Of a DNA stretch of 19,877 nucleotides, positions 180 to 19,504 are shown piece after piece. Made by a program: the position numbers and the translations under genes. The notes beneath the pieces were generated by a model. That model searched no databases and was not told the origin of the DNA. It saw nothing but the letters and a program-made list of their open reading frames with translations. Location of the stretch: positions 58,937 to 78,813 of the forward strand of contig PS015164.1 of assembly GCA_048213135.1 (NCBI GenBank). Reading direction: 5' to 3'. The stretch comes from Reclinomonas americana ATCC 50394 (taxonomy: Eukaryota). Every line of letters starts with the position of its first letter. Positions within the stretch are counted from its first letter, which is position 1.

Positions 180-2070
180 CTTCCGCTGGAGAAAATCTCC
201 TCCATTGCACGCCACGTATCGCGACGAAGCGTGGCATTGTCCATGTCGGGCTTGCTGGTGAACATTCGCACCAATGCCGAGCTGCATACACGCAACAGAA
301 AGGGAGAGAGGAGAAAATCAGATTGCATAAGTGTTGGAGATCTCTGGAGACGCCTCGGCAGGTTGCTTGTTGTACCGTCGCTCCGGTCCTGCATGTCATG
401 ATCAACTGTCAGCATCTCTTTTCCCAATCTCTCACTCGACAAGCAGTGGAATGTACCCGGGAAGTGGACAAGATAGAGGTCGACATAGTCGACGCCGAGG
501 CGGACCAACGACTGATCAAACTCCTGCAGAGTCGACTCGTATCTGTGTGCGCAATTATCAGTGCTGCAACTGGCGGTTCGACTGCTGCCATCACTCATAC
601 ACACCCAAGCTTGTCACGGCTGAGCTTGGTGCACAGGAAGATCTCTTCGCGAGGCACGCCCGACTCGCGGATGGCGCGTCCCACTGTCGACAATGTATCA
701 GTGTGCAATACCGAAACCGAACAGTTCGGTAACACACACCTTCTTCCTCGTTGTCGTACGACGATGCCGTCTGTCGCAAACATGGAGAATAGGGTTAGCA
801 GCTTGTCGTCGCGATATTCTTGCTGCAGCACGACGACGCAACATCGATGTGGCGGAATCCAAGTTGCAGTGCGCTCAGCTGCATTCGAGTGAGAGAAGAA
901 TCGCCACCACCACCACCATCACAGCACCACCTCACATCGTAGTGGTGTCTCACTGCATGATTGTCACCACTGATCCGGAAACGGAGAGAGAGAGATAGAG
1001 AGAGAGGGCAATCGCTGCTGAGGCTGTAGAGACAAGAATGCCTGATGTGTTATGTGCGTGCGTGCGTGTGTGCAAATGTGTGCGTATGCGTGCATGCTCG
1101 TCCCTACAAGTAGTGAACTCTAACTGTGCAGTCGCTGCACTGGTTGCGGAGAAGTGAATCACTGGTGACTGATGTGACGAAAAGTTGTGTGTTCGTGCAC
1201 TGTTCAAGACGTGACCGCGATGAAAGAACACACGACAGTGCAGTCGCTGCAGTGGTTGCAGAAAGAGAATGACTGGCGACTGATGCGATGCCAAGAGAAG
1301 CAGTGAACACATAACAGTGCAGTCACCGCAGCTGCAGTGGTTACAAAAAGGAGAATGACTGACGACTGACGTAAATACAAGCTTCTTGCGATGTGGAGAC
1401 TGGAGTGTGAGTGTGTGTACTGTTCCTGAGGTGACCGCGATGAAAGAACGCATAACGGTGCAGTCGCTGCAGTGGTTGCAGAAGGAGAATGACTGGCGAC
1501 TGATGTGATGCCAAGCGGCGACTTGTGATGTGGAGTGTGGGTGGGTGGCTGCGTATGTGTGGGTGTTCGTGCTTGCTCGCCTTCCAGAGGCAGTGAACGA
1601 GCACAGAACAATGCTGAGGCTGCAGTGGTTGCAGAAAGATGGCTGACGGCTGATGTGGTGCCAACAAGCTCTTGTGGCGACTGATGTGTTGTAGTCTGTA
1701 CGTGTGATCTCCTCTCTCTCTCTCTCTGCCACATGTCTCTTCTCTCTTTCCCCGCTCTCTCTATCCCCGCCCCGCTCTCGCACGCACCACCGACTCGTAG
1801 CACTCCTCGCCCTTGAGCTTCCACGTTCCATGTCCGAGAACAGGAATTCTGACCTCGCGGCCGTCGCGTGCACTCGCAGTCTTCAGCGTCAGTGTCGGAA
1901 TCGGGGCCGCCACCATGGTGGTGCCCACCTGCGATGATAATATTGTCGGTTTGTGAATACTGCAGCTCACTGCCTCTCTCTCTCCCTCCTCTCTCTCTCT
2001 CCTGTCTGTGACGTACCTTGGAGGTGCTCACGCCAGTCGGCTGCACGGTTGGAACAAACGTCGAGGTCAT
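180..2070 (-). CDS. Aldo-keto reductase paralogue 1 (multi-exon; 3' end runs off the window start)
   Basis: Spliced model: 2070-2017 (MTSTFVPT..SK), 1928-1788 (..IPVLGHGTWKLKGEECYESV), 878-843 (LSALQLGFRHID), [59 protein letters not shown], 13-nt exon 388-376, ..LRRDTWRAMEEIFSSGR (donor at 179). AKR motifs present with the Asp/Tyr/Lys/His tetrad intact. Confidence 0.92.
1122..1690. repeat. Degenerate interspersed repeat array (~5 units) within intron 879-1787 of AKR paralogue 1
   Basis: Core GTGCAGTCGCTGCAGTGGTTGCAGAAxGAGAATGACTGGCGACTGATG, or variants of it, recurs near 1126, 1238, 1317, 1458 and 1612. Confidence 0.9.
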
Positions 2071-2513
2071 TGTGTCTGCGCTCTCTCACTCGCTCTTTTG
2101 GAACTGAATCCTTGTCCGCAGCACAGCACAGCAGAACCGATCCTCGGACGGGCAGTAGAATCTCACTGTTGGAGCATAGCTACATTGGCCCCTTGTGCTT
2201 CCACTGTCTCTATGATTCTATGATTGCTTCTCGCACACCACGCCCTCTCGACAGTCTCCCTTGTTGGCGCGCGGCAGAGATGGTTGAGTGTACATACTTC
2301 CGCCATATGCGGTTGGCGAGTGAAGCATTCTGTCTTGGGAGAACGTTTCCTTTGAAAAGGGGTTTCATTCGTGCATGAAGCATGCTACAGGTGGGGAAAC
2401 AAGAAGAAGAATCTATTGGTGGTTGGTGTTAGTGGTGCTGGTGACAGTGATGCTCGTCGTGTGCTGTCCGCACAGCTGCTCCATTGAATCACACGGCACT
2501 CCCGCCCGTCGTC

Positions 2514-4922
2514 TTACACCACGGTGCGCGGGTCCGAGCAGTAGAACTTGCCCTGGTTGAGCGTGTCGATCAGACGCATCTCTTGGTCTGTCAGCTCAAA
2601 GTCGAAGATATCAAAGTTCTCACTCCGGTGATCCGAGTCCGCCGTGCGCGTCAGCACCACTGCACGTGTGTGCAGGTGAACCACTGAGAGCACGCAAGAA
2701 GCACAAATACAACACGCACCGTTGCCTTGCTGCAGGTTCCAGCGCAAGAAAATCTGCATGCGCAACCAAGAGAGAGAATCAGTCATTACTCACACCAATT
2801 CATGGTTGTCTGTGATGATGTCACCTGCGCGAGCGTCTTGCCGTGCCTCTCGCCAATAGTCTTCACGTCGTCGTTCGAGACGTCAACCAGCTGCGCAGCA
2901 CGGCGATCGTGAGCATTCATGATCATATGCATGATAACAACGTGTTGTGCCTACGCACGTTGCCAGTGCCGAGCGGCGAGAATGCTTCGACCACGATGCC
3001 ACGGTCGCGGCAGTAGCGCACCAGAGCGCTAGGTGACAGGTGTGAGTTCGTGGCGGTCACAATAATGAGTGAAGATCTGCAACATACAAAAGACACTCAC
3101 CGCCGAGTGAGGCGCGGATGCACCTCCACCTGGTTCACCGCAGGCGGCACCACACACTCGTGGATCAGCTCCTCCAAGTGAGAGATCTCAAAGTTGGAGA
3201 CGCCAATGGCACGGGCGCTGCGCAAGCATGATCATGACTCAGTGGACTCATCACATGAGCTGTTCATGTGTCTGTAACAGCATCAGCAACACTGACCGGC
3301 CGGTGGAGTGGATTTTCTCCATCGTCTTCCACGTCTCCAGACGGAGGAGTGAGTTCCTCGAGTCCGTCTCGTCGCTGTAGCTCAATTAATAGCTGAAGAC
3401 CCATACACAAGTGAACTGCGATAAGACAACACCCTGACGCACAGATCATGGGCGCCTGTGTGCATCGAGTGAGTGAGTGCTGACTGCTGACAAGTAGGGT
3501 GTGAATGAATTGCCTCACCAGGCCAGCCAATCAGGTACAGGTCGACGTAGTCCACCTGAAGGCGCTCGAGCGAGTTGTGGAAGCACTCCATGGCCTTGCC
3601 GCGACTGCAAGAAAAGTGTCAGTGGGGTCATCCTTTCAGGAGCTTACACACCGGTTCCACTCGCACGCAACCCCAGGTGCTTGTCATCCAAGCGAGTGGT
3701 CAGGAAGATCTCGCCACGAGGCACTCCGGAGTCGCGAATGGCGCGGCCCACTGTCACCGCCAGGACAAGTTAGCGTGATTTCGCACCAAGGACGCTATTG
3801 TACGACTCACCCTCCTCCTCATTGTTGTACTCGGCAGCCGTCTGCGCAGATTCACAACAGCACTCGTCAAGCCTCTCAACCTCACAGTCGCGTGCATCTC
3901 TCACTCACTCACATCAATGAGGCGGAAACCGGAGCGCAGAGCGCCCAGCTGTTTTGCATCGTCACAAACATCAGTATCGTTCTTGTCGACAACTCGATTC
4001 TGCCACCACTCACCACCGCATCGTAGCAGTCGTCACCAGTCAGGTTGAGAGTGCCAAAGCCGAGGACTGGCATGCGCACTTGGCGGCCGTCGCGCACACT
4101 CGGCGTCTTGAGCGTCACCATCGGCTGGTGCATGAAAGAGTAGCGCGTGCCGAGACCGCCTCCTCCCACTCCGCCGGTGCCACTGGTGCCGTAGATCTGC
4201 GACCCGCCTCCCTGCTGGTAGCCGCTGGTGGGGGTGCCGTAGATCTGGGAGCCCTGCGGGTACCCCGAGGTGAAGCCACCACTCACCGGGATCTGCGGTG
4301 ACAAGCACCACAGAATGAGAAGAATTCGAACGAGTCATTAGTGACGGGCGACGGCACGACTCACCGAGCGCACGCCACTGCGCAGTGGCACGCCGCTGCC
4401 GGAGACGTTCGACAGGCCAGTCGTGCCGGCGCCGCGCGTGTAGTCTTGCGAGAGCGGCACGCCCTGCTGCTGCTGCAACTGCTGCTGCTGGCGCCAGACG
4501 TCGCCAGAGCCCACTTGCTGGTGCTGCAACGGGCGCTGCGGATAGTTGACCGACTGCTCCGGAACGGAGAAGGGATAGGGGCCAGTGTTCTGCTGTTGCT
4601 GTTGCTGGCCCTGGCCCTGGCCCTGGCCCTGCGCCCACTGGCGTTGGTACTCGTACGCCGGCATCTGCTGCGTCTGCTGCGACGACTGCGCCCACTGGCG
4701 CTGGTACTCCGGCTGCTGCTGCTGCTGCTGCGACTTGAGGTACGTGTACTGCGGCTGCTGCAGCGTCTGCGACACCGGCTTCATCTGCTGCTGCTGCTGC
4801 ACGTACTCGGGCACGTCGCGGCCGAGCGTCGACGACGACGTCACACCGGTGCCGGTGGTGGTAATCGGAATCGCACGGCTCGTCGACGTGGTCGACACCT
4901 TTTCACGCGTCTGTGCGTACAT
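2514..4922 (-). CDS. Aldo-keto reductase-fold paralogue 2 with Q/G/S/Y-rich N-terminal extension (complete, multi-exon)
   Basis: ATG at 4922, exon 4922-4365 Q-rich, exon 4292-4014 ending [20 protein letters not shown]. Then [43 protein letters not shown], ..[14 protein letters not shown], ..[39 protein letters not shown], ..EAFSPLG, ..[11 protein letters not shown], ..[31 protein letters not shown] at 2516-2514. Confidence 0.92.
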
Positions 4923-5605
4923 ACCAGTAGCAGAAGGAGCAGTAGAGTATTAGGCATGATGTGCAGGTGTGATGCGAAGAGGCAAGCGCTTGAGAAACAG
5001 ATCTACTCGCAACGCAACATACGACATGGCGAAGTAGAAATGAGGAGAGGGTGGTGGCTGGTCTGCGCTCTGCAGTGAACGAAAAAAACAATGATGAAGA
5101 TCAAGCAGCGAGTAGACAGACGATCCTCGCATTTGAACCACGCGCCCGACGCTTCCGCCGCGCGTCGGAAATTCTTTGCATTTCTCCGCAGAATATTCTC
5201 CTGTATGATGTGCACGTGGTGGCAGTGGCGCGCCCTCTCGTGCACAGTCCCTTGACTCGTCTCGAGTGACCATCACGAGTGTAGTGAGATGGGCATCGGA
5301 AAGCGCGATGACGCGCGTTGCGTGCACTGATACCGTGACACAAAACACCTGTGTCCGCACACACACGTGCATATACGCACAAATGTGCAACGTGTGATTG
5401 CCACCACCTTCTTCGTCTTCTTTGCCAAAAGGATCATTACGCTCTCCCGCGTGGCCTTTGTCACGAATTCATCATATGCGACAGGAGATGATTGCAGCAT
5501 GCGGCTTTACTTTTTCTCAGTCATCATCGTCACTCATAACATACTCATGGATATCGTCATCTACGACAGTGGGCGACACGAGCCGCCAGTTGCATCTCCC
5601 CCCGC

Positions 5606-8600
5606 TCACTCGACCACCCGCGGATCTCGGTTGTAGCGGCGACCCTTGTTGATTCTGTCGATCGTCTCCATGTCGTCTTCGGTCAACTCAAAGTCGAACA
5701 CCTCCAAGTCCTCCTTGCGGTGGTTTACGTTTGAGGTGCGCACGGCCACAGCTGTGCACGCGAGTCAGTCAATATTCAGAGATAGTGTGTGTATTATGCT
5801 GCATCTGGCACTCACCATGTCCCTGCTGGATGTTCCATCGCAGGAAAATCTGCGCAACGACAAACAATAAAGTGCACGTTGAAGTGCAATAGCAGCTCGG
5901 CACGCACCTGTGCAGGGGTCTTGTGGAGGCGAATGGCCACCTTGTGTGCCTCATTCATCGCACGGATGGTGCGATCGCCCACGCCTGCGTTGAGACGCTT
6001 GAGAGCAGACGGCGGCTTCACCATCTGCAGCATCGCGAGCGTATCAGATGCAAGCCGAGAAAAGAGCGAGAGAAAGAGGATTGTCGCAGCTGAGACTCAC
6101 ATGCCCAGCCGCCAACGCTGACGCAGCCATGACCACAATCGCGTGGTCGTGGCAGTAGCGCACCAGAGGTCTGCATGTATGTGTGTGGAGGGGATAAATG
6201 GCTCTCACGAGGAAGAAGCGGACGACGACGATGCACATAGCATGCGCAACTTGCGTGTCAGCTTCGGGTGCACCTCGATCTGGTTGACTGCCGGCGGAAT
6301 GGTGCACTCATGCAGCAGTGCCTCCAAGTGCGAGATCTCAAAGTTGCTGACACCAATGGCGTGCGCCCTGAGTGCATGCGGACCAGTGCGGTGAGCAACT
6401 TATGCACAAAGCGATGCACCACCAGCACCAGCACTATATATTCGCAACTTGCCACTGGCGTGGATCTTCTCCAGCATTTCCCACGTCTCGCGTCGCAAGG
6501 CTGCGTTGCGTGGATCTGCCGCTGACCTGCACCAGCGATGTGAGGGAGAGACGACGACCAACGGCGATGGTACGGGAACTCAACAGATCGAGGGCACCCG
6601 GCCAGCCGACGAGAAACAAATCAAAGTACTCGAGACCGAGATGCTCCAGCGACGTCTGGAACGCTTCCAGGGCCCGTCCTCTCCTGTGGACACACAACAC
6701 AGTAAATATCATGGCGGTGGTGGGTGCGACAATACAGTGTGTCACGGACCCCAGATGACGGCCATCCAACTTGCCCGTCACAAAGATCTGACTGCGGGGA
6801 ACCTTTGAGTCGCGGATCGCCTCGCCCACTGTTGCACGATGGTGAGTATGTGATGAGTTCCACGTCCGCAAACGTGAGCGTACACGCACCTTCAGATTCG
6901 TTGCCGTAGAGGGGGCTCGTCTGCGTGTAGTCAGTGCGTGAGATGTGAAACGCGCGGAGACACGAGGAGAAGCAGTGCACACTCACGTCAATATGGCGGA
7001 AACCAGCCAGCAACGCCCCAAGCTGTACACACTCGGTGAGAAGAACAGCTCACAAACCACCAGCGCCCATCAGCGACAACTCACCGTGGCCTTGTAGGCA
7101 TTCTCGCCGCGCAAATGGTTCGTGCCAATGGCGATGATCGGCATGTGGATCATCTCGCCCTCGGCACTCGGCGTGCGCAGCGTGATGGTTGGCACGGCCA
7201 CCGTGTCATACGGCAGGCGTCGGAAGCTGGTGGTCGAGGTCGGTTGCTGCTCTTGCTCCTGCTCCTGCTGCTGCTGCTCGCCGCCACTGGTCTCACCTCC
7301 CGGCGTCACACCCGACAGTGCACCGCTTGGCAGCACGTCAGTCACCAGTCCGGCGGTCGGCGGCTTGGCGGCCACGATGCTGCTGGCAAATGGCACGGCG
7401 GCTGCCGCAATTGGACCCGCCAACACCTCGGCAGGCACCTGCGGCACGAGGTTGCGCGGCACCATGACCACCATGGGCACCGGAACCAAGTCCGTGTCGC
7501 CGCCAGCACCGCCACTGATACGTCGGATAGTCATGGGAATCGGCTCGCCATCGCCGCCTGGCGTCACGGCGGTGGCCAGCAGTTCGGCTGTCAGTGGCGG
7601 GTTCAGCACGCCACCACTGGGAAGGAGACCCCCTCCAAGAGCACTGGGTTGCGACGCCGCCGCCGCGATGGCCGCACCCGTGGCAGCCGTGCTCAACGCA
7701 GGCGACACCAGATCGGCGGGGTTGGTGATGTTCGCAGGTGCGGCACGTGGAAGTTGCTGCTGCGGCGGCGGCGCACTCGCCTCAGTTGTGTGAGGCTGGC
7801 TGTGTCGGTGGTGGTGTCTGGTAAACTGGACGGGGACTTGACGTGGCACGTGCGACTGCAGTGCGCCGGTGGCGGCCAAACTCTCCGGGCCAAATGTCAC
7901 CGGCTTCGGCGACTCGACCAGTGGACGCGGCACGAGAATGGCCGGCATGGTCTGCGGCCGCGACGGCGGGAACGATAGAGTCGGCTCGCGTGCTCCCTGC
8001 AGCCCCTCGTCACCCTCGTCTTCGTTGTCCGTCGAGAGCGGTTCAATGAAGCGGCGTGACAAGGGCACCGCAGGCGGGATGTTTTCCTGTTCCGCCATCT
8101 GAGGCGCTGAGGACGAAGGGAAGTCCAGCAGCGGCTCCTGTTGTTGTGCGGGAATTTGCGACCAGCCGCCCTCGTCGCCCTCCGTGGGCAGCGGCTCGAA
8201 GAAACGAGAGTACGGCTGCTGCTGCTGCGGCGGCGGCGGCAGTGGTTGCGGGAAGTCGATTAGTGGTTCCTGTTGCTGCTGCCAATCGCTCGGCTCGCCC
8301 TCCTCCTCCATCGGTAGTGCTTCAATGGTGCGACTCTGCGCCGCTGGCGCCGCAGTCCACTGCGGCGCAGCAGCGGGGAAGCCGATCAGCGGTTCCTGCT
8401 GCTGCTGCTGCTGCTGTTGCTGGGCCCAGTCGATCGGCTCGTCTTCCTCGGGCAGTGCCTCGATCGTGCGCTGCTGCACCGGCTCCACCCACGGCTGCGA
8501 CCGCGGGACTCCGCCGGCAAAGTCATGCACCGTCTCCTCTGGTTCTTGCTGTTGCTGCTGCTGCCGTTGCAGCCACTCGGACTCCGCGTCCTCGGTAGGC

Positions 8601-10262
8601 AGCGGCTCGATGATGCGCTGCGAGGCCGGCGGGGTGTTGTAGATGCTGCTGCTGCTGCTACTGGGCGCGCCAAAGTCGCCAACCGCCGGCTGCACATCGC
8701 GATCCTGCCACGCGGTGAACGCCTCCGGCTCCTCCGACATGGGTGTCACACCAAAGACGGTGGGGTCGCCACCACGGAAACTCTCAATCTGCGGCTCCTG
8801 CTGCGCCACGAGACGCGGCTCTCCGGCGGTCCAGTCGCCGCCGCTGCCGCTGCTGCGCAGTGGCTGCACAATGAAACCCGATCGACCGCCGCCGACATCA
8901 GGCTCCACCGGCTGGAAGACATAGGTCGGCGCGGGCTTGTTCGCGGACGACGACGGCACCAGAGGCACCACATCGTCTGCGGGCGGCGCCTCATAGTCGC
9001 TCGGGATCTCCTCCAGCGGATACAGAATGCGAGTGTATGGGGTGGCCTCCACCGGTGTCACATTCGGCACCACATTCGGCAGGTGCGACCTGCTGCACGG
9101 TTGCATTTGCATTTAGTATGCGGCAGATGTGCCCCATCATGATCACCAATCGATTGCTCACCTCGGCCACGATTGCACCTCGTCCGTGACATGACTCGTT
9201 GTCGGCAGTTCCTCCATGGCCTGGAACACGCCGCGATTCTGCTGCTGATTGTTGTCATAGGCTGCAGGCTTGCTCACAGGCACCGGCACTGGCTCGGCGC
9301 GCAGACTGGTGGGCTCCGGTGGAGGCGTTTCGAGGCCAGCCTCCTCCTCCTCCTCCTGCGTGCGCTGGCCAGTCCCCACCTCCGCAGTGCTCGGAGGAGG
9401 AGGAGGAGGAGGAGTCGCACGACGGGCGCCAATGGTGGTGGTGGGGTGATGGGAGCGAGTCTCATTGTCGACTATGGGACTCGAGTACGAGGGTGACGTG
9501 GAGCCGGCAGTCGGCATGGACTGCTGGTCGAAGCGACGCGCACCACTCGCATGCGTGGGTGCCGGAGGCGGGTTGTCGAGCTCGGCGGCCGACGAGGGTG
9601 ACTCTGTGCCGCCAAACGGCACCACCGTCGGCATGATCGGCATAGGGTTGTTCGGGTTCAGGCCGGTGGCACTGGTCGCCACCGCCGGCATCATGAACGC
9701 CGCGCGCTGGCCAATAGGCGACGCCGGCGACGGCGGAACAATGCGCAACTTGGACGCCACACCGCCGCCACCGCCACTGCCACCGACATCAGCCACGGGC
9801 GGATTGTCGGGCTCCACATGTGCCGCCTCGGACTGCGATTCGCCGATATCCGTGTCGGCACCATGAACCGCCTCCGTCGTCGCCGTCGCCGCCGTAGTTT
9901 TCTTCTCGTCACCGCCCTTGCTGGGCTTCATCTGTGCCACGCATCACAGAGTGAGCAACAACAATCCGCGAGAACCAAAAACACAAAAGATTCTCCCCGC
10001 ACAAACCAGCGAAGTCAAGCGGCGCTTGATCCAACTCACCGCCGACTCGTCGCTCTCCTCCTCCTCTTCTTCTTCTTCAGCTTCCTCCGGTTCCTTGGCG
10101 ACCGTGACCGTTTTCACTTCGCGTTCCGTGGTCACCGGCTGCTCCGCCGCATGAGCAATCGTTCCCTGTTCCACCTTTTACAGTGGAGCGACTTGTCTGT
10201 TCAGCAACAGCAGCACCAGCAGCAGCAAGCAGAAACGCGAATTACGAACTCACCGACGACAT
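5606..10262 (-). CDS. Aldo-keto reductase-fold paralogue 3 with a very long (~950 aa) low-complexity N-terminal region
   Basis: Probable start exon ATG TCG TCG at 10262-10254, then exons 10174-10040, 9931-9162 and ~9089-7085 (P/Q/E-rich, ending [20 protein letters not shown]). Then [43 protein letters not shown], ..[15 protein letters not shown], ..[25 protein letters not shown], ..[11 protein letters not shown], ..[27 protein letters not shown] at 5608-5606. Splice phases are consistent; the 5' linkage is less certain than the AKR domain. Confidence 0.85.
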
Positions 10263-10755
10263 GGGTCACAACAACAACAGTGAGGTTTCCGCGCTCTGCA
10301 CAGGCGGAGAATCGGGAATTTGAGCATTCAGTGATCGCGACAAGCGAAGGCTGGCCAAGGCTGAAAGAAACGGGGATAAGTTGGAAAGAAGGCAACAAGG
10401 AGCGCATGTAAAAAAAAGAGAGAAATTTGGAGATGGGCGTGCGTGCAAAGTGAAGGAGGAGGAGGAGAGGGGAGAGGGAGGAGAGGAAGAGGATGCACGA
10501 CAGAGAGAGAGAGAGAGTTTCGTGGGTGAAGTTGTGTCACCGAAGATTGAGGGGGCGAGGAGTTGTCTCGCGCTTACCATGTGTGCCTTTGACATCGCAG
10601 TTGCAGAATGAGTGAATGAGTGTGCAGACAGTGTGCAAGCGTTGCGCGTGCGCGGCTTGTGACAAGTCGACGCGACGTTGTGCACAGGACACTCACACGC
10701 GCTCATATCAGTCCATCGTCAAGCACACAACGAGTNNNNNNNNNNNNNNNNNNNN

Positions 10756-10846
<91 letters not shown>

Positions 10847-10858
10847 GAGAGAGAGAGA
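10756..10858. repeat. (CA)n followed by (GA)n microsatellite adjacent to assembly gap
   Basis: Direct inspection. Confidence 0.97.
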
Positions 10859-10989
10859 TGGTTGTTGTGAGATGGACCGCAGCGAGGCCTTCAGCTCGTC
10901 ACATTCACAGTTGTCGCCATCATGTGATGGAGGAAAGACTTGGATTCAAGATGTCCACTACGTTCTCATGTCTTGTTTGTGATGCGCAG

Positions 10990-12102
<1,113 letters not shown>

Positions 12103-12227
12103 AAAAACAAGTAGTGTGTGCGCACATTTATGTGCGTGAGAGAGGGGGAGAGAGAGTGAAAGTGCTGTTCTTTTCCTCTTGGCTTTATTTTACGTCATTA
12201 TTCTTCGTTATTACGTGCTATACATGT

Positions 12228-14948
12228 TTAGAACTTACTGTGACCCCCCATTGCGGCCCCAACGCCCAGGAGAATGGTCACGCCGTAGCCGATGCACACA
12301 CCCAGCACGAGGTTGGTGATTGCGAAACTGTTAATCTGTGAGTATCGTTGCGCGCCTGCTCTCATGTTCTCCATCGTGCGTACCTCCACACCTTGCTGGC
12401 ATCCACATTGTCCCTCAGCAACTGCACAAAGAAATACGGTTGCGCAATGGGCGCTCGGTTTGACCACTGCTGCGCGATGCTGTTTACACCGTCGTTGTAC
12501 ATGGCGATATCTTCATCGCTGTGCAGTGGCGACGCGGTGAGCTCCGGTCGCCGTGGCAGTGAGAAGAATGACGAAACGCACTTTGCATGGAGGAGACTCG
12601 CCGACGCCTCCACCACGGTAGACGATGTGGGATGCGCCCACGACTGCTGGCACGCAAGGCGCGCCGCTGTACACGTCTCCTCTGAGCCGGTGGTGTACTG
12701 TGTAGTGGATGAGGACGGAGTGCAACACCTTGCTTTCACGGCGTACATACCTGCTTGCACACGACGTATGCCTATCGTGCAAGTGCAGCAAGTCAGAATC
12801 AGCAAGCGTGAAGTGCCTCGCCCACCCTGGCTTACGCACCGATACTTTGGCGCCTACTTGTGCGTCGCGATCCGACGTGTACAGCGGGGCAACGGCCCTG
12901 CGCGAATAGCAGCAAATGAGCACCAGCAGCATGTTGGGCAAGCATGAGTGCTTGGTTGCCCCAACCAGAATGTGTAGCTGTGCCAACGACAATAAGCAAC
13001 AATAGGCGAGAAACTCGTTTCCCCACACACGCCACGCAACAAGGTTGTATCCTCGCTCGTGCCGGTCTCGAGGCACTGTGAGAACGACTGTTCGGCGGCG
13101 ATGAAGAACCCCGGTTGCAGGTTGAACTGGTTTGCCACGTCTATAGAGTGCATTCGGATGCTCAGCTGGACGCATCCACCACCACAGCCACCACCACCAC
13201 CGCTCACATCTCAACACACCTGCCAGTCCCAGCTGGCGCACCTGCTCGACGGTTACCGGCGCCCCGTGATCGTACTCGCGCCATTGTCGAACCACGGTGT
13301 AGTAGCGAAAGTCTATGCACAAACGAGTGAGTCAAATGTGCAGGCAGAGAGAGAGAGAGAGGCTCTTCCTCCACGCTCAACTGTAACCCACGACGGCACC
13401 GACGACGATGAACACAATGCCGAAACCGGCAAAGAAGACGAACTCCGAGCAGTGAATGGGACGCTGGGGGCCGTTGCCGCATAAGCAGCGGTAGCAGAGC
13501 CGCACCGTGAGAAACTGGAGGTAGACAAAGCCGCCTGTGATGCAGTCATCACGGTGTGAGACCACATCGCGTGCGTTATCCTATCCTCTCGTACGACTCA
13601 CCGACACAGCTGACAAGCACCGCATTGAGGGTCCCGTTAGTTCTGAGTGTTTTTCCCAGCAAGCAGAGACTGACGACAAAATACAGAAGCGGCCACAAAT
13701 AAAGTCGCGCTCGTGAGCCGCACTTTCTTGCGCGGCACAGGCCACGGCGTTTCCGCACAGGCTGCACTCTGTAGTGGTGGGAGGGAGCACGCTGCAGTTC
13801 AGAAAGAGAGAGAGAGAAAGAAGGCAACCAGTGCAGGGTCGACGCAACTCGACAGCGACAGGCGGTGGTGCTGTTTTCGTTGGCGAGAAGCTGATGGACA
13901 GAAACGACGAGTTAGTTCACCAGCTACGCGAGGTTCATCGCTGTTAATGACGCACATTGGCTTGCCGGCTGTGGGCGGCGGCCTGCGTGCGCAGAGTGAG
14001 ATGATCCGCACACATGGGAAGTGGTCTTGATTACGATCTCTCGCAACTGTTTCGTCGGCCTGCAGTGCACAGCAAGTGAGTGAGATGGAGGGGGCGCGAG
14101 ACTTTGAGCGACGCAACTGTTCCGTGTAAGCTGGCGTCTTCTTGGCCTCATCCAGACTGTCGCCACACAGTTGTTTGAAAAGATTGCGCCTGCAACACGT
14201 GTGGGCGAGTGCGCGAGTCACCTGCGCTGCGTCGCCAGGTACGTAGGAGCGGAGAGCGAGTCCTGACCACGTTGCAGCTCGCCACTGGCATGCAGTGCAG
14301 CAGTCACCTGCTCGACACGACTGCGCAAGTTGTCCACGGAGAGCATTGGTGCCAGATCTGCGACGATTTCGTCGACAGTGCGTGCTTGCTGTACATGCGG
14401 TTGTGTGTGTGAGTGTGGCAGTGTGAGCGGTGCAGAGTACTATGTGTGAGAGAGACAGGGGGGCACCACGCACCGTGCGACAGTTTTGCAACACAAGCTG
14501 TCGGAGCTGTCGTCAAGAGGTGTCATACAAACGGCGAAGGCCGTCGACATGCCACGCGTGCACAGTGATACGCAACAAGCTCGTCGATGTTGACCATGTC
14601 TTCTCTCTTCTCTCCAGCGTGTGTGAAAATCGATGGTGAAGCAGCAGTCGTTGCGGAATTTTTGGGATGACTGTGACAGCGGACGACATGCAGCGCGTTG
14701 TTGTCCTCTCTCTGTTTGTTGCACTGCTGCACGTAGCGCGCTTATAGCTTCCTCACGCACTCAACACACACCCCACATGCACACTCTTCCACACAGTGCA
14801 TGCATATGATTCGTGCGCATGCGCCGCGCTGCGCAGCGTTGATCATGACTATAGTACTCTCCTCGAGCTCTGTGATCTGATTGGATTGCCATTGGTTCCC
14901 AGCGTGCAACATCAGCTGGCACAATGCTGAGTGGCAGCGAACGGCCAT
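12228..14948 (-). CDS. Uncharacterised multi-exon probable membrane protein (start and several exon boundaries uncertain)
   Basis: Phase-compatible chain of exon candidates: ..EDMVNIDEL|QARTVDEIVADLAPMLSVDNLRSRVEQ..|RNLFKQLCGDSLDEAKKTPAYTEQ|PTKQLREIVIKTTSH.., ..RKRRGLCRARKCGSRARLYLWPLLYFV.., GGFVYLQFLT|FVFFAGFGIVFIVVGAVVGY|FRYYTVVRQW.., ..DEDIAMYNDGVNSIAQQW.., final hydrophobic INSFAITNLVLGVCIGYGVTILLGVGAAMGGHSKF*. No family recognised. Confidence 0.5.
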
Positions 14949-15181
14949 GGTCACACTGCGCGCAGAATGGACGCAGCGAACCCGAAAGAATTCGATCGAT
15001 ATCGCGAGACCGTTTTTTGCCGCGCCTTGCGATCGAAACGGTCTTCTCGGAGTGCAGTGATGCCTGACTCGCCCGTCGTAGCACATTGCTCCATCACTTC
15101 GTGGCATTCAGAAGCAGAGAAAACGCATGCAATGGAGAGCGCGAAACCTGCGCGCGAATTCGAAATCTGTACAAAGTACGA

Positions 15182-15736
15182 NNNNNNNNNNNNNNNNNNN
15201 NNNNNNNNNNNNNNNNNNNNNNNNNNNNNNNNNNNNNNNNNNNNNNNNNNNNNNNNNNNNNNNNNNNNNNNNNNNNNNNNNNNNNNNNNNNNNNNNNNNN
15301 NNNNNNNNNNNNNNNNNNNNNNNNNNNNNNNNNNNNNNNNNNNNNNNNNNNNNNNNNNNNNNNNNNNNNNNNNNNNNNNNNNNNNNNNNNNNNNNNNNNN
15401 NNNNNNNNNNNNNNNNNNNNNNNNNNNNNNNNNNNNNNNNNNNNNNNNNNNNNNNNNNNNNNNNNNNNNNNNNNNNNNNNNNNNNNNNNNNNNNNNNNNN
15501 NNNNNNNNNNNNNNNNNNNNNNNNNNNNNNNNNNNNNNNNNNNNNNNNNNNNNNNNNNNNNNNNNNNNNNNNNNNNNNNNNNNNNNNNNNNNNNNNNNNN
15601 NNNNNNNNNNNNNNNNNNNNNNNNNNNNNNNNNNNNNNNNNNNNNNNNNNNNNNNNNNNNNNNNNNNNNNNNNNNNNNNNNNNNNNNNNNNNNNNNNNNN
15701 NNNNNNNNNNNNNNNNNNNNNNNNNNNNNNNNNNNN
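15182..15736. other. Assembly gap (N run), expected to contain exon 1 of tectonin copy A
   Basis: N run whose flanks are homologous to the upstream region and intron 1 of copy B. Confidence 0.9.
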
Positions 15737-15763
15737 TCTCTCTCTCTCTCTCTCTCTCTCTCT

Positions 15764-15816
<53 letters not shown>
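15737..15816. repeat. (CT)n(CA)n microsatellite in first intron of tectonin copy A
   Basis: Direct inspection; borders the N gap. Confidence 0.95.
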
Positions 15817-15818
<2 letters not shown>

Positions 15819-15886
15819 ATCACACTCAATCGCGGTCACACTGCCCTCCTTGTCACCCCGATTCACCCTCCCTCTCCCGTGCACAG

Positions 15887-17025
15887 CCACTTTGGTGGCC
15901 TTGGGCAACGCCTACATGACTGGTGTGGCGGACACCACCTTTGAGCACACTGTGAGCGACGTGGAGGAGATGCGCGCAGAGCTCGAGCTGGACGCAGCCG
16001 AGGAAGACTACGGGTGAGTTTCCTCATTCTCCTCAGATGCCTGACAGGCCCACTCACAAGCCATTTCCTTCGCAGTTTCTACGCCGAAGCTGAAAGCCGC
16101 CACGCACGCCGTTGCCGTCATGCCAAGTGCGACGACGACGACGAGCCGCTGCCTCTTGATTTCCGGTGAGTCTGCAGCTGCAGAGAGATCCTCCCCGCGC
16201 AACACCTGCTCACATCCCTCATCGCAGCTGGCAGCAGCTCCCTGGCGGTGCCATTGACATCGGCTTGCAGCAGAAGCAACACAGGACCGCCGCTGTGTGG
16301 GTCGTTGGCGTCGAAGGCAACATGTTGAGTATATGAGCGCATTGCATGTGCTCGTCGACATGAAAGCGGGTGGTACTGGTGCTAACATACACTTGGCGCT
16401 CGCGCGCAGCTACAACTATGTGCACAAATCCGGAACATGGACTGGCTACGACGTCAAGAGCCGCGCGGTGAACATCGCCGTCGCCCCGGACGGCACACCG
16501 TACGCCTCGCTCAACGACAGCAAGCACATCATCATCTTCGACAAGACAAAGTTGACGTGGAGCGAGCTGCCGGGTGTCGACTGGGCCATCGACATTGCAG
16601 TCGGCTCCCAGTACGTCTGGTATCCACACATGAGTGGCGGCCGCGTGGTGCGCGTCGATCGCAAGACCTTCAAGTTGGAGGTCGATCCCCAGGCCGGTGG
16701 CATCATGCGCATCACCGCCGACGCGGACGACAACGTGTTCGCCATTCGCAATGACAACAGCATCTGGCGCATGGTCAAGTTTGGCCAGTGGCAGCAGATG
16801 CCTGGTCTTGGGCTGGACATCGGCGTCGGCTCCGATGGCTCGTTGTGGATTGTCGGCATGGACAAGGCATTCTACACGTACGCTCCCGCCGCTGGCGGCT
16901 GGATCTGCCTGCCGACGGCGAGAGGCATCCGCGTGTCGGGTGGACCCGAGGGGGGCCCGTGGCACGTGAACGACAACAAGGAGATCTGGCGCCCGATCTA
17001 CCCGGCGGACGCTGACAGCTACTAA
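15887..17025 (+). CDS. Tectonin-type six-bladed beta-propeller lectin, copy A (first exon hidden in N gap)
   Basis: Exons homologous to copy B: 15887-16013 (acidic segment), then FYAEAESRHARRCRHAKCDDDDEPLPLDF, WQQLPGGAIDIG..VWVVGVEGNI, and last exon 16410-17025 with five more WxxxPG..xDIxVGxxGxxWxV-like repeats. TAA ends at 17025. Confidence 0.8.
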
Positions 17026-17344
17026 AACCGAAGAAGTAAACTTGTCGGGTTTCGTCACTCAGAGTGTGAGTTTGGATTCGTTCGCATGCATTCGTGTTAC
17101 CGAATCATGACAACCGCCGAGGTTTCTCGTCCGCTAGCGCCAAAGTATTCCTATCTGCTGTTGTTGCAAAAGAGATTGTGGTCAAGAAATGTATCCATTC
17201 GCGCGCGACCTCGCATGCTCGTGAAAACGCTCCGTCCGCCTGCAGCTATTGCAGAACGTGTACACAGCAGCGGAGATCTGTGGCATTTGGAGGCCTTTGT
17301 GGTGAAGAATTTCGCCACACTACATAGCGAACGTTTCTCGCCGA

Positions 17345-17383
17345 GAGCGCGAAATCTGCGCGTGAAATCTGCGCGCGAAATCT
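17345..17383 (+). promoter_or_regulatory. Triplicated GCGCG(N)GAAATCT element upstream of tectonin copy B
   Basis: GCGCGAAATCT-GCGCGTGAAATCT-GCGCGCGAAATCT, ending 100 nt before the ATG. A related element lies at 15139-15168 upstream of copy A. Confidence 0.5.
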
Positions 17384-17482
17384 ACGAGTACGACCGTTAC
17401 TTCCCGCCTTCGTCGCGTTCAACTTCATTTCGTCTTTCGTGTGAGAGCAGACTACTTGGTTTTCTCCACGTTGCCAGATCTC

Positions 17483-18931
17483 ATGAATCGCCTTCTCCTT
17501 CTCATCGCCCTCTGTGCTGTGGCCATTGTGGCACTCGTCGGCGTGAACGCAGAGATGGAAACTGACTTCCAGCTCGGTGTGTGGACTCATTTATGGTTTC
17601 GCGCGCTCTCTTTCTCCCTCTTCTTTCTTTATTCTCCCGCGCGCGCGTTCTCTCACTACCTTTGTGAGTGTGAGTGTGATGCATCTCTCTCTCTCTCTCG
17701 ATCTCTCTCTCTCACTCATGATCACACTCAATCGCGGTCACACTGCCCTCCTTGTCACCCCGATTCACACACTCACCCTCCCTCTCCCGTGCGCAGCCTC
17801 CCTGGCGGCCTTGGGCAACGCCCACATGACTGGTGTGGCGGACACCACCTTTGAGCACACTGTGAGCGACGTGGAGGAGATGCGCGCAGAGCTCGAGCTG
17901 GACGCAGCCGAGGAAGACTACGGGTGAGTGTAGTTCCCATTCTTCTCAATTGCCGGACAACTCCCACTCACAAGCCATTTCCTTCGCAGTTTCTATGCCG
18001 AAGCTGAAAGCCGCCACAGACGCCGTTGCCGTCATGCCAAGTGCGAGGACGATGATGAGCCGCTGCCTCTTGATTTCCGGTGAGTCTGCAGAGACATCCT
18101 CCCCCGCACAGTCACCTCAAATCACCTGCTCACATCCCTCATCGCAGCTGGCAACAGCTCCCTGGCGGTGCCGTTGACATCGGCTTGCAGCAGAGGCAAC
18201 GCAGGACCGCCGCTGTGTGGGTCGTTGGCGTCGATGGAAATATGTTGAGTATAAGTGCACTGTGGACGATTGACATGAAAAACGGTGGCGCTGACATACA
18301 CTTGTCGCTCGCGCGCAGCTACAACTATGTGCACAAATCCGGAACATGGACTGGCTATGATGTCAAGGGCCGCGCGGTGAACATCGCCGTCGCCCCTTGC
18401 GGCAAGCCGTACGCCACGCTCAACGACAGCAAGCACATCATCGTCTTCGACAAGAAGAAGCAGACGTGGAGCGAGCTGCCTGGCATCGATTGGGCCGTCG
18501 ACATTGCCGTTGGCTCCCAGTACGTCTGGTTTCCGCACATGAATGGCGGCCGTGTGGTGCGCGTCGATCGCAAGACGTTGAAGTTGGAGGTCGATCCCCA
18601 GGCCGGTGGCATCATTCGCATCACCGCCGACGCGGACGACAACGTGTTCGCCATTCGCAGTGACAACAGCATCTGGCGCATGGTCAAGTTTGGCCAGTGG
18701 GAGCAACTGGTTGGTCTTGGGCTGGACATTGGCGTCGGCTCCAACGGCTCGTTGTGGATTGTCGGCATGGACAAGGCATTCTACACGTACGCTCCCGCCG
18801 CTGCCGGCTGGATCTGCCTACCGACGGCGAGAGGCATCCGCGTGTCGGGTGGACCCGAGGGGGGCCCGTGGCACGTGAACGACGGCAAGCAGATCTGGCG
18901 CCCGATCTACCCGCCGAATGCCTCCAGCTGA
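17483..18931 (+). CDS. Secreted tectonin-type six-bladed beta-propeller lectin, copy B (complete, 5 exons)
   Basis: Exon 1 at 17483-17576, MNRLLLLIALCAVAIVALVGVNAEMETDFQL (signal peptide). Exon 2 at 17797-17923 is acidic. Exon 3 has RHRRRCR. Exon 4 ends at 18243. Exon 5 at 18319-18931. Six tectonin-like repeats begin WQQLPGG, WTGYDVK, WSELPG, LEVDPQAGG, WEQLVG and WICLPT. Confidence 0.82.
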
Positions 18932-19385
18932 AGAGTGTGGGAAACTGCGACGCTGCGTTTCAAGAAAATGAACGCATGCACGGAAAACTAACTGCACGCT
19001 GCTTTCTGTATGCTCTGTTTGTTTCTTCTCCACTTTCCGCGAAGAGCGACGGCATGCAACGTCGGTCAAGTCCTGCATGCACACGTGAACTCCGTTTACG
19101 ATCCGTCGTTAGGGGGGGGCCGCAACCTTTTTGGCTCGCCCAGGATTGTCACTGTCCCCCATTTTTTCACCTCGTTTCGGAGGTGTCCCCCAACCCTCAC
19201 CAGGTCTCGCAACCTGTGCACGTCCGACTTGCACAGGCGCCCACCGTTAAAAAGTCCCATCCCCCAAAAAAATTTCTCTCGCGATCCACCGTACCCCAAT
19301 GGGTAAAAAAAGGGGTGTCCCCGTGTCCCCCAATTGTTGCGGTACCCCCCTGTCGTTTACGTGTAGTTGCATCTCCGCCGCGCAG

Positions 19386-19504
19386 ATGAGCACCACTCAA
19401 GTACAGCTGGACGAGAGCGGCCGCGACGCCGTGCGCGAAGTCACCGACCTCGACAGTCAAGTGCATCATCCGCAGTACCTGGTCTTTGAGGTCTGCATCG
19501 CAGA

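Follow-up and report, generated by a model that had tools for sequence, protein, structure and literature searches.

We analyzed a 19,877-base stretch of the Reclinomonas americana ATCC 50394 genome (assembly GCA_048213135.1, contig PS015164.1, positions 58,937 to 78,813 of the forward strand; hereafter the window), in which a recurring class of 5' splice sites (donors), GTTG[AC]G, carries what looks like the ordinary donor consensus displaced by one base. The window has a G+C content of 57.8% and contains short GT-AG introns, microsatellites, and three N gaps. Modeling by coordinates yielded six genes with 43 GT donors and 42 complete introns between them: three aldo/keto-reductase (AKR) paralogues (P1 to P3) on the minus strand and, on the plus strand, a tandem pair of tectonin genes together with the 3' portion of BUD31, a splicing factor gene. 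Internal stops are absent from all six models, and 40 of the 42 introns measure 56-121 nucleotides (nt), with the remaining two at 220 and 909 nt. Families were assigned by matching single exons to Pfam. One AKR exon matches PF00248 (E = 7.8e-5, 22.3 bits, narrowly missing the 24-bit cut-off for a piece of 40 amino acids), a tectonin exon matches PF19193 (E = 2.8e-8, 33.9 bits, cut-off 30), and a BUD31 exon matches PF01125 (E = 7e-11). Over their full length, the spliced AKR models additionally align with 2,5-diketo-D-gluconate-reductase-like proteins. The coordinates of the genes and introns discussed here are collected in Table 1.

Table 1. AKR gene models, introns with GTTG[AC]G donors, BUD31 contrast donors, and candidate introns of the membrane-protein gene; a slash marks the exon-intron boundary
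Feature	Coordinates	Strand	Length	Phase	Donor	Remarks
AKR paralogue 1 (P1)	180-2070	minus				7 introns plus a donor at 179; gene runs off the window
AKR paralogue 2 (P2)	2514-4922	minus				12 introns
AKR paralogue 3 (P3)	5606-10262	minus				13 introns; long low-complexity N-terminal extension
AKR P1 intron 3	771..842	minus	72 nt	0	GAT/GTTGCGT	
AKR P2 intron 5	3605..3671	minus	67 nt	2	GGG/GTTGCGT	added by this analysis
AKR P3 intron 8	6527..6584	minus	58 nt	2	TCT/GTTGAGT	
AKR P3 intron 9	6368..6448	minus	81 nt	2	CAA/GTTGCGA	
AKR P3 intron 10	6171..6250	minus	80 nt	2	CAA/GTTGCGC	
Tectonin gene 1, last intron	16324..16409	plus	86 nt	2	CAT/GTTGAGTAT	
Tectonin gene 2, last intron	18244..18318	plus	75 nt	2	TAT/GTTGAGTAT	
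BUD31 contrast intron	11029..11096	plus			AAG/GTTTGT	T at +3; G+5/T+6 in normal register; G at -1
BUD31 second contrast donor	11937	plus			CAG/GTTTGT	
Membrane-protein gene, candidate	14507..14576	minus	70 or 79 nt		CTT/GTTGCGT	
Membrane-protein gene, candidate	14060..14117	minus	58 nt		ACA/GTTGCGT	
Membrane-protein gene, candidate	13792..13848	minus	57 nt		CGA/GTTGCGT	in frame, open; passed over by gene-model search
Membrane-protein gene, candidate	13313..13381	minus	69 nt		ACA/GTTGAGC	
Membrane-protein gene, candidate	12978..13040	minus	63 nt		CTT/GTTGCGT	in frame, open; passed over by gene-model search

More than half of the 43 donors read GTGAGT (15) or GTGCGT (8), in agreement with a preliminary description of this DNA that had named these two forms as the prevailing ones (23/43). 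The others comprise 7 GTTG[AC]G, 3 GTGTGT, 2 GTTTGT, and 8 singletons. When canonical donors were defined as those without T at +3 (n = 34), 29 carried G at -1 and as many carried G at +3; 31 had A or C at +4, 31 had G at +5, and 30 had T at +6. The GTTG[AC]G donors (hereafter GTTG donors, n = 7) have G at +4, A or C at +5, and G at +6 without exception, followed by T at +7 in five. Their profile from +4 to +7 is that of canonical donors from +3 to +6 (G, A/C, G, T), which places the conserved block one base further from the cut; the displacement of the consensus put forward in the preliminary description is therefore seen as a G[AC]GT block at +4 to +7. The extra base is T in 7/7, and donors of the form GT[ACG]G[AC]G number 0/43. 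At -1, G is present in one of the seven GTTG donors versus 29/34 canonical donors (Fisher p = 6e-4). The exception, GGG/GTTGCGT at 3671, belongs to a site recognized in our modeling, so that the earlier statement that none of these donors has G at -1 holds for the sites it listed and fails for the class.

Ten donors lack G at +5, and seven of them are GTTG[AC]G, a concentration with a probability of ~1e-13 under intron base composition and ~1e-11 with the tectonin duplicates collapsed. T at +3 does not by itself define the class, since the GTTTGT donors of BUD31 keep the ordinary register. The GTTG introns are 58-86 nt long against a median of 68, and they have branch-like motifs and CAG acceptors as in other introns. 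As a share of all donors, the class amounts to 7/43 (16%, 95% confidence interval 7-31%), or 6/39 with tectonin duplicates collapsed; the probability of finding at least six GTTG donors among 39 is 2.5e-6 at a true rate of 1% and 0.012 at a true rate of 5%.

The string GTTG[AC]G is itself common, with 48 occurrences over both strands of the window, and inside modeled exons it appears 3 times in sense and 10 times in antisense orientation. By itself it is no signal, being not above chance. Because the string is so frequent, the case for a donor class depends wholly on the sites being exon-intron boundaries. Each of the eleven strings that the preliminary description had proposed as donors was found at its position and on its strand. 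Six of these (842, 6584, 6448, 6250, 16324, and 18244) emerged as the best-supported donors, on the basis of stop-free frames, alignment to homologues or internal repeats, and enumeration of rival boundaries, and the site at 3671 brings the modeled GTTG donors to seven; the other five lie in a membrane-protein gene that is treated below. As a separate observation, GTTGCG is also found on the minus strand 10-20 nt ahead of three acceptors, at 296 (..GTTGCGTGTATGCAG), 2766 (..GTTGCGCATGCAG), and 5858 (..GTTGCGCAG); chance and a role in the 3' intron signal are both possible sources, and either may hold.

All seven GTTG introns begin with GT and end in AG, and their removal restores the frame, while retention leads to a stop or a frameshift in 6/7. 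As rival boundaries, we enumerated all stop-free GT/GC..AG pairs that preserve the frame and fall no more than 30 nt from a modeled boundary; a rival yielding the same length is absent for six of the seven donors, with 6584 as the exception. A GC-AG donor lying 3 bases downstream at four GTTGCG sites was considered and rejected; its use would add one codon, which at 842 would fall inside the conserved HIDTA motif.

The AKR paralogues supply a position-by-position comparison for five of the sites. The donor at 842 occupies the alignment column and phase common to GAT/GTGAGT in P2 and GAC/GTGAGT in P3, within HIDTA; its spliced frame is clean, read-through meets a stop at codon 15, and the GC donor just mentioned is the sole rival nearby. 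The donor at 3671 likewise shares column and phase with TGG/GTGTGT in P1 and GGG/GTCCGT in P3, with a read-through stop at codon 9. In P3, the donor at 6448 has the position and phase of CCG/GTCAGT in P2, a read-through stop at codon 16, and no same-length rival, and an 11-residue stretch there is aligned gap-free; the donor at 6250 has those of GCG/GTGAGT in P2, a read-through stop at codon 15, and no same-length rival, with 'HPKLTRK-PLVRYC' aligned gap-free across the junction. The donor at 6584 matches TCT/GTGCGT of P2 in position and phase and is the least firmly constrained among the seven: it lies in a variable loop and has three same-length rivals, the donors of which are poor (GTTCCC, GTACCA, and GTCGTC). 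The preliminary description had placed its four AKR sites in the same column and phase as a paralogue's ordinary donor, and this correspondence was recovered for all four. Alignment to 2,5-diketo-D-gluconate-reductase-like homologues (25 of 47 fetched proteins, 265-300 amino acids, 10 of them printed) showed zero gaps at the AKR GTTG junctions, including the invariant HIDTA, AIGVSNF, and NQVE.HP stretches. The five AKR GTTG donors fall at five different intron positions, each in a single paralogue, and we therefore read them as independent origins, with repeated switching between the ordinary and the displaced form.

In the tectonin genes, the GTTG donor belongs to the last intron of each copy. 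At 16324, the modeled boundary is the only same-length solution, and read-through ends in a stop at codon 4; at 18244, read-through is open, and there is no same-length rival. The tectonin junction (N-I/Y) aligns gap-free to an internal repeat, another blade of the same protein. Between the two copies, the GTTGAGT segment shows 74% identity with 15 gap columns (86 vs 75 nt), whereas the exons show 92-96% identity with 0-3 gap columns, and on account of this difference we take the segment at 18244 to be non-coding. Two ordinary tectonin introns diverge between the copies in the same way. The first 10 intron bases are nonetheless identical in the two copies, set against a diverged intron interior, and both loci, separately, carry GTTGAGTATA.

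All seven junctions were inferred from DNA alone; as far as evidence of this kind can show, the sites appear to be real GT donors. That they are instead artefacts, arising from wrong gene models with splicing at other nearby sites or from an extra T introduced by assembly or sequencing error, we consider very unlikely. Such an account would find room in the N gaps of the assembly and its homopolymer-rich, poor-looking stretch at 19100-19360, in the same-length rivals at 6584, in the derivation of every junction from DNA, and in the five membrane-gene candidates, which are unconfirmed. It is opposed by the lack of a same-length rival at 6/7 sites, by homologue alignments that are gap-free at the junctions, and by the presence of an identical GTTGAGTATA at two separate tectonin loci. 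Sequencing error as the source of the extra T was rejected: ~8 kb of modeled exon keeps its frame without a single indel, so it is not credible that a one-base insertion error struck +3 precisely in 16% of donors.

Assignment to the U12-type was also rejected. U12-type introns are recognized by an [AG]TATCC donor and a CCTTAAC-type branch site, and the motifs searched for, an [AG]TATCCTT donor and a TCCTTAAC branch site, occur in 0/7 GTTG introns. Like the GTTG class, U12-type introns constitute a second donor class beside the major one in the same genes; the motifs of the two differ.

Taken together, the sequence comparisons suggest that the GTTG introns are probably U2-type GT-AG introns in which the donor is the ordinary consensus with one extra U, most likely read by ordinary U1 in a non-canonical register. 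Addition of one U directly after the GU of the ordinary consensus, (G)/GTG[AC]GT, would give /GUUG[AC]GU. In a candidate shifted register, G at +1 would stand opposite C9 of U1, U at +2 would be mismatched, U at +3 would stand opposite A7, and the G[AC]GU block would lie opposite positions 6 to 3. In a candidate bulged register, which would be equivalent, one of the two U's would be looped out. Cleavage would stay in front of GU in both cases, and U1, and later U6, would accommodate the extra U.

We counted the possible pairs of each donor in these registers against the generic U1 5' end printed in PMC4856993. GTTG donors average 5.0 pairs in the canonical, 7.0 in the shifted, and 8.1 in the bulged register; canonical donors average 8.0, 4.8, and 6.3, respectively. 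These counts fit a shifted or a bulged register; the preliminary description had suggested shifted-register recognition. The constancy of T as the extra base would be expected if this U pairs with A7 of U1. The scarcity of G at -1 is predicted by the shifted register, in which G at +1 fills the slot of the -1 G, and is not predicted by a simple bulge. The invariable U at +3 and the scarce G at -1 thus lean to the shifted over the bulged register, a preference that is weak because only six sites are independent and codon constraints act on -1.

Several points weigh against reading these donors through ordinary U1 in a displaced register. Besides the derivation of the junctions from DNA and the rivals at 6584, a leave-one-out gene-model search blind to the donor motif recovered 22/36 known donors (5/7 in P1, 8/12 in P2, 6/13 in P3, and 3/4 in the model labeled T2), including 3/6 of the GTTG donors tested, and coding statistics alone therefore do not pin the GTTG sites. 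The depletion of G at -1 is partly a matter of codon content, the ordinary-donor paralogue also having T at -1 at 2/5 AKR positions. The sample is drawn from 20 kb with two paralogue families and comprises seven sites, six of them independent. The best duplex with the generic U1, calculated in ViennaRNA with standard nearest-neighbor parameters for unmodified, protein-free RNA, is weak for GTTG donors, at a mean of -2.6 kcal/mol (+0.5 to -4.6) versus -8.0 for canonical donors, and most of these best duplexes use the downstream block alone; ordinary U1 pairing by itself may thus not explain efficient use of the sites. U6 normally pairs with G at +5 and U at +6, at a fixed distance from the cut. 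The extra base sits awkwardly with this fixed-distance contact and would have to be accommodated there.

The weak predicted U1 duplexes would also suit an account without any special register, in which degenerate weak donors are tolerated, the very short introns (56-90 nt) are defined mainly by GU, branch site, acceptor, and length, and the resemblance to a displaced consensus is a by-product of single-T insertions into GTG[AC]GT. The same genes do use other weak donors (GTACAT, GTACAA, and GTGACA), and their introns, short throughout, show clear branch-like motifs and end in CAG acceptors. A block that is irrelevant should decay, yet G at +4, A or C at +5, and G at +6 are kept in 7/7 sites and T at +7 in 5/7. 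The block has moreover been kept despite strong divergence of the paralogues and turnover of the rest of their introns, the tectonin copies have held their first 10 intron bases identical despite a diverged interior, and the inserted base is always T. We regard tolerance of weak donors as an unlikely explanation of the class.

Weak pairing with the generic U1 (-2.6 vs -8.0 kcal/mol) could alternatively indicate a variant U1, and possibly U6, small nuclear RNA (snRNA) with a 5' end complementary to GUUG[AC]GU, in which case two recognition systems for U2-type introns would operate in parallel. The class is sharply defined and frequent (7/43), as this would lead one to expect, and snRNAs and splice signals are reported to have co-evolved in other lineages, as in Entamoeba (preprint 10.1101/2022.06.08.495308), with the same possibility raised for Ostreococcus (PMC2483917). 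An Rfam scan of the window returned 0 matches, and hence no snRNA gene within these 20 kb. A variant with one extra base should still favor G at -1, yet G is found there in 1/7, and five independent switches in one gene family suggest an easy one-step change tolerated by a single machinery. A dedicated variant snRNA therefore strikes us as distinctly improbable.

In humans, a few hundred sites are known to use non-canonical U1 registers, the relevance of which lies there mainly in the interpretation of disease mutations. Shifted-register 5' splice sites of human genes were reportedly described by Roca and Krainer in 2009. As far as the texts compared go, the human shifted sites resemble the GTTG donors in that GU opens the intron, pairing potential with U1 is low in the normal register but high one base over, an AGU-type block lies one base downstream, and G at -1 is dispensable, with G at +1 opposite C9. 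They differ in that the human case is built on GUAAGU, whereas the motif here is GUUG[AC]GU on a GUG[AC]GU consensus and is known from sequence alone; the shifted register is moreover a rare curiosity in humans, while the analogous form here accounts for 7/43 donors in one window. According to Tan et al. 2016 (PMC4856993), the shifted and +2/+3 bulge registers are experimentally established in human cells, and bulge registers (Table 3 of that article) number 1 (+2), 68 (+2/+3), and 51 (+3), or 120 of 201,541 sites (~0.06%). Human sites with +2/+3 or +3 bulges, as presented there and reportedly also by Roca et al. 2012, share with the GTTG donors a nucleotide looped out after GU with normal pairing of the rest. 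By pair count, the bulged register is the best fitting for the seven GTTG sites (8.1). Human +3 bulges, again as given there, include bases other than U, whereas the extra base here is U in 7/7, and the bulge model fails to predict the lack of G at -1 seen in GTTG donors.

Changes of the 5' splice signal across whole lineages are described in the consulted text on the tunicate Fritillaria (PMC13326754) and on Entamoeba (10.1101/2022.06.08.495308), and a GTGCGTG donor consensus is given for Ostreococcus in that of PMC2483917. In these sources, as here, a lineage departs from the textbook donor, and a change in U1 or U6 as against another register is at issue. To the extent that those texts present them, the three lineages replace or tighten the consensus, whereas in this window the ordinary consensus and a copy displaced by one base coexist in the same genes with GT-AG kept; such coexistence is absent from the tunicate, Ostreococcus, and Entamoeba text compared. 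A literature search limited to shifted and bulged registers, the GTGCGT/GTGAGT consensus, and intron-rich genomes and protists found no GUUG[AC]GU class, and a search by motif string returned primer-like matches only.

The preliminary description had proposed a major splicing mode in this organism; the window statistics make it plausible that the GTTG class is common genome-wide, by extrapolation from 20 kb that hold two paralogue families. We put forward only tentatively, and with more doubt than confidence, that a second 5' splice-site register could be a mainstream mode in this organism, used by about one in six introns genome-wide, with the G[AC]GU block moved away from the scissile bond by one nucleotide and free interconversion of the two forms by insertion or loss of a single T. 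Were this so, U1 and U6 contacts would have to tolerate a one-base slip routinely, or a second set of snRNAs would be needed, and the organism would offer a natural system for studying what fixes the cleavage site once the snRNA register has moved. If a sizeable share of introns carries shifted or bulged donors, the register of the 5' splice site would be evolutionarily flexible, and many natural pairs of an ordinary and a displaced donor at one intron position would be at hand for studying the part of U1, U6, and U5 in fixing the cut site. Gene finders whose training covers six intron bases would then mis-annotate a sizeable share of introns. Should the high frequency be local to two gene families, the finding would shrink to a handful of unusual but explicable donors.

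Five further candidate GTTG donors lie in an orphan membrane-protein gene on the minus strand (Table 1). Six pieces of this gene searched against Pfam matched 0 families, its best score in a protein atlas was 0.75 with no meaningful neighbor, and a search of 1.84 billion protein representatives gave one marginal match (E = 2.5e-4). Gene-model searches found full-length reading-frame paths both with and without GTTG donors. When such donors were allowed, the search used three of them, at 14117, 13381, and a sixth motif at 14047; the motif-blind search, with its recovery of 22/36 known donors, is too imprecise to settle the gene. Read-through is open at 3/5 candidates (14117, 13848, and 13040). 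At 13381, a stop appears at codon 1 in the frame used, a branch-like motif lies 15 nt from the 3' end, and the donor is chosen whenever GTTG donors are allowed. The intron at 14117 is open in all three frames; it was chosen by the gene-model search, yet a full path without it also exists. The candidate at 14576 requires an ATG at 14597, and the gene-model search preferred an ATG at 14550, leaving this donor unused. A 32-nt GT..AG 'intron' (14190-14221, minus) is required by one phase-consistent reading of the gene; the shortest of the 42 modeled introns measures 56 nt, far more than this, which gives reason to distrust that reading. Of the six to eleven such sites estimated in the preliminary description, then, the lower part of the range stands, with seven well supported (the six listed and 3671); the five membrane-gene candidates are unverified, lacking a family or homologue and having GTTG-free paths.

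The AKR genes show several further features. Intron 2 of P1 (879-1787, minus) is, at 909 nt, the only long AKR intron. It contains 5-6 degenerate direct repeats (~46 + 35 nt) at a spacing of 79-153 nt, and a 110-nt pair at 88% identity; Tandem Repeats Finder detects only fragments of these repeats. Micro-exons of 13 nt lie between short introns in P1 (376-388) and P2 (3443-3455), both on the minus strand. P3 is without the upstream intron of the pair that flanks the micro-exon, and the P1 micro-exon is the least certain part of the P1 model. The N-terminal extension of P3, ~970 amino acids long, carries repeated 'IEPLP/IEALP...W' units and has no Pfam match. A tandem CAGCAG acceptor at 9089-9092 (minus) would permit two in-frame products one residue apart. 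In the 'L(I/V)HWP' stretch (3519-3604 and 6585-6683, minus), P2 and P3 have G where P1 and all 10 printed homologues have H. This H is a catalytic residue, so P2 and P3 may be non-catalytic members of the AKR family.

BUD31 (10270-12102, plus) is present in the window from about residue 80 onward only. Between 10270 and 10990, a region with an N gap and an extended (CA)n run, we saw no 5' exons. A BUD31 intron of ~788-789 nt contains an N gap, and its sequence is almost wholly CT-rich and of low complexity.

Protein searches with the tectonin exon returned distant homologues only, at 27-35% identity (15 longer proteins and 7 of near length), and none of the 71 pattern matches from a metagenome scan with the same exon is a relative. 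The stretch at 19100-19360 is rich in homopolymer runs of G, C, and A and resembles sequence of low quality; a possible gene start follows shortly downstream of it, at 19387. A similar GC-rich repeated motif is found upstream of both tectonin genes (15140-15180 and 17340-17390, plus) and may be a shared promoter element.

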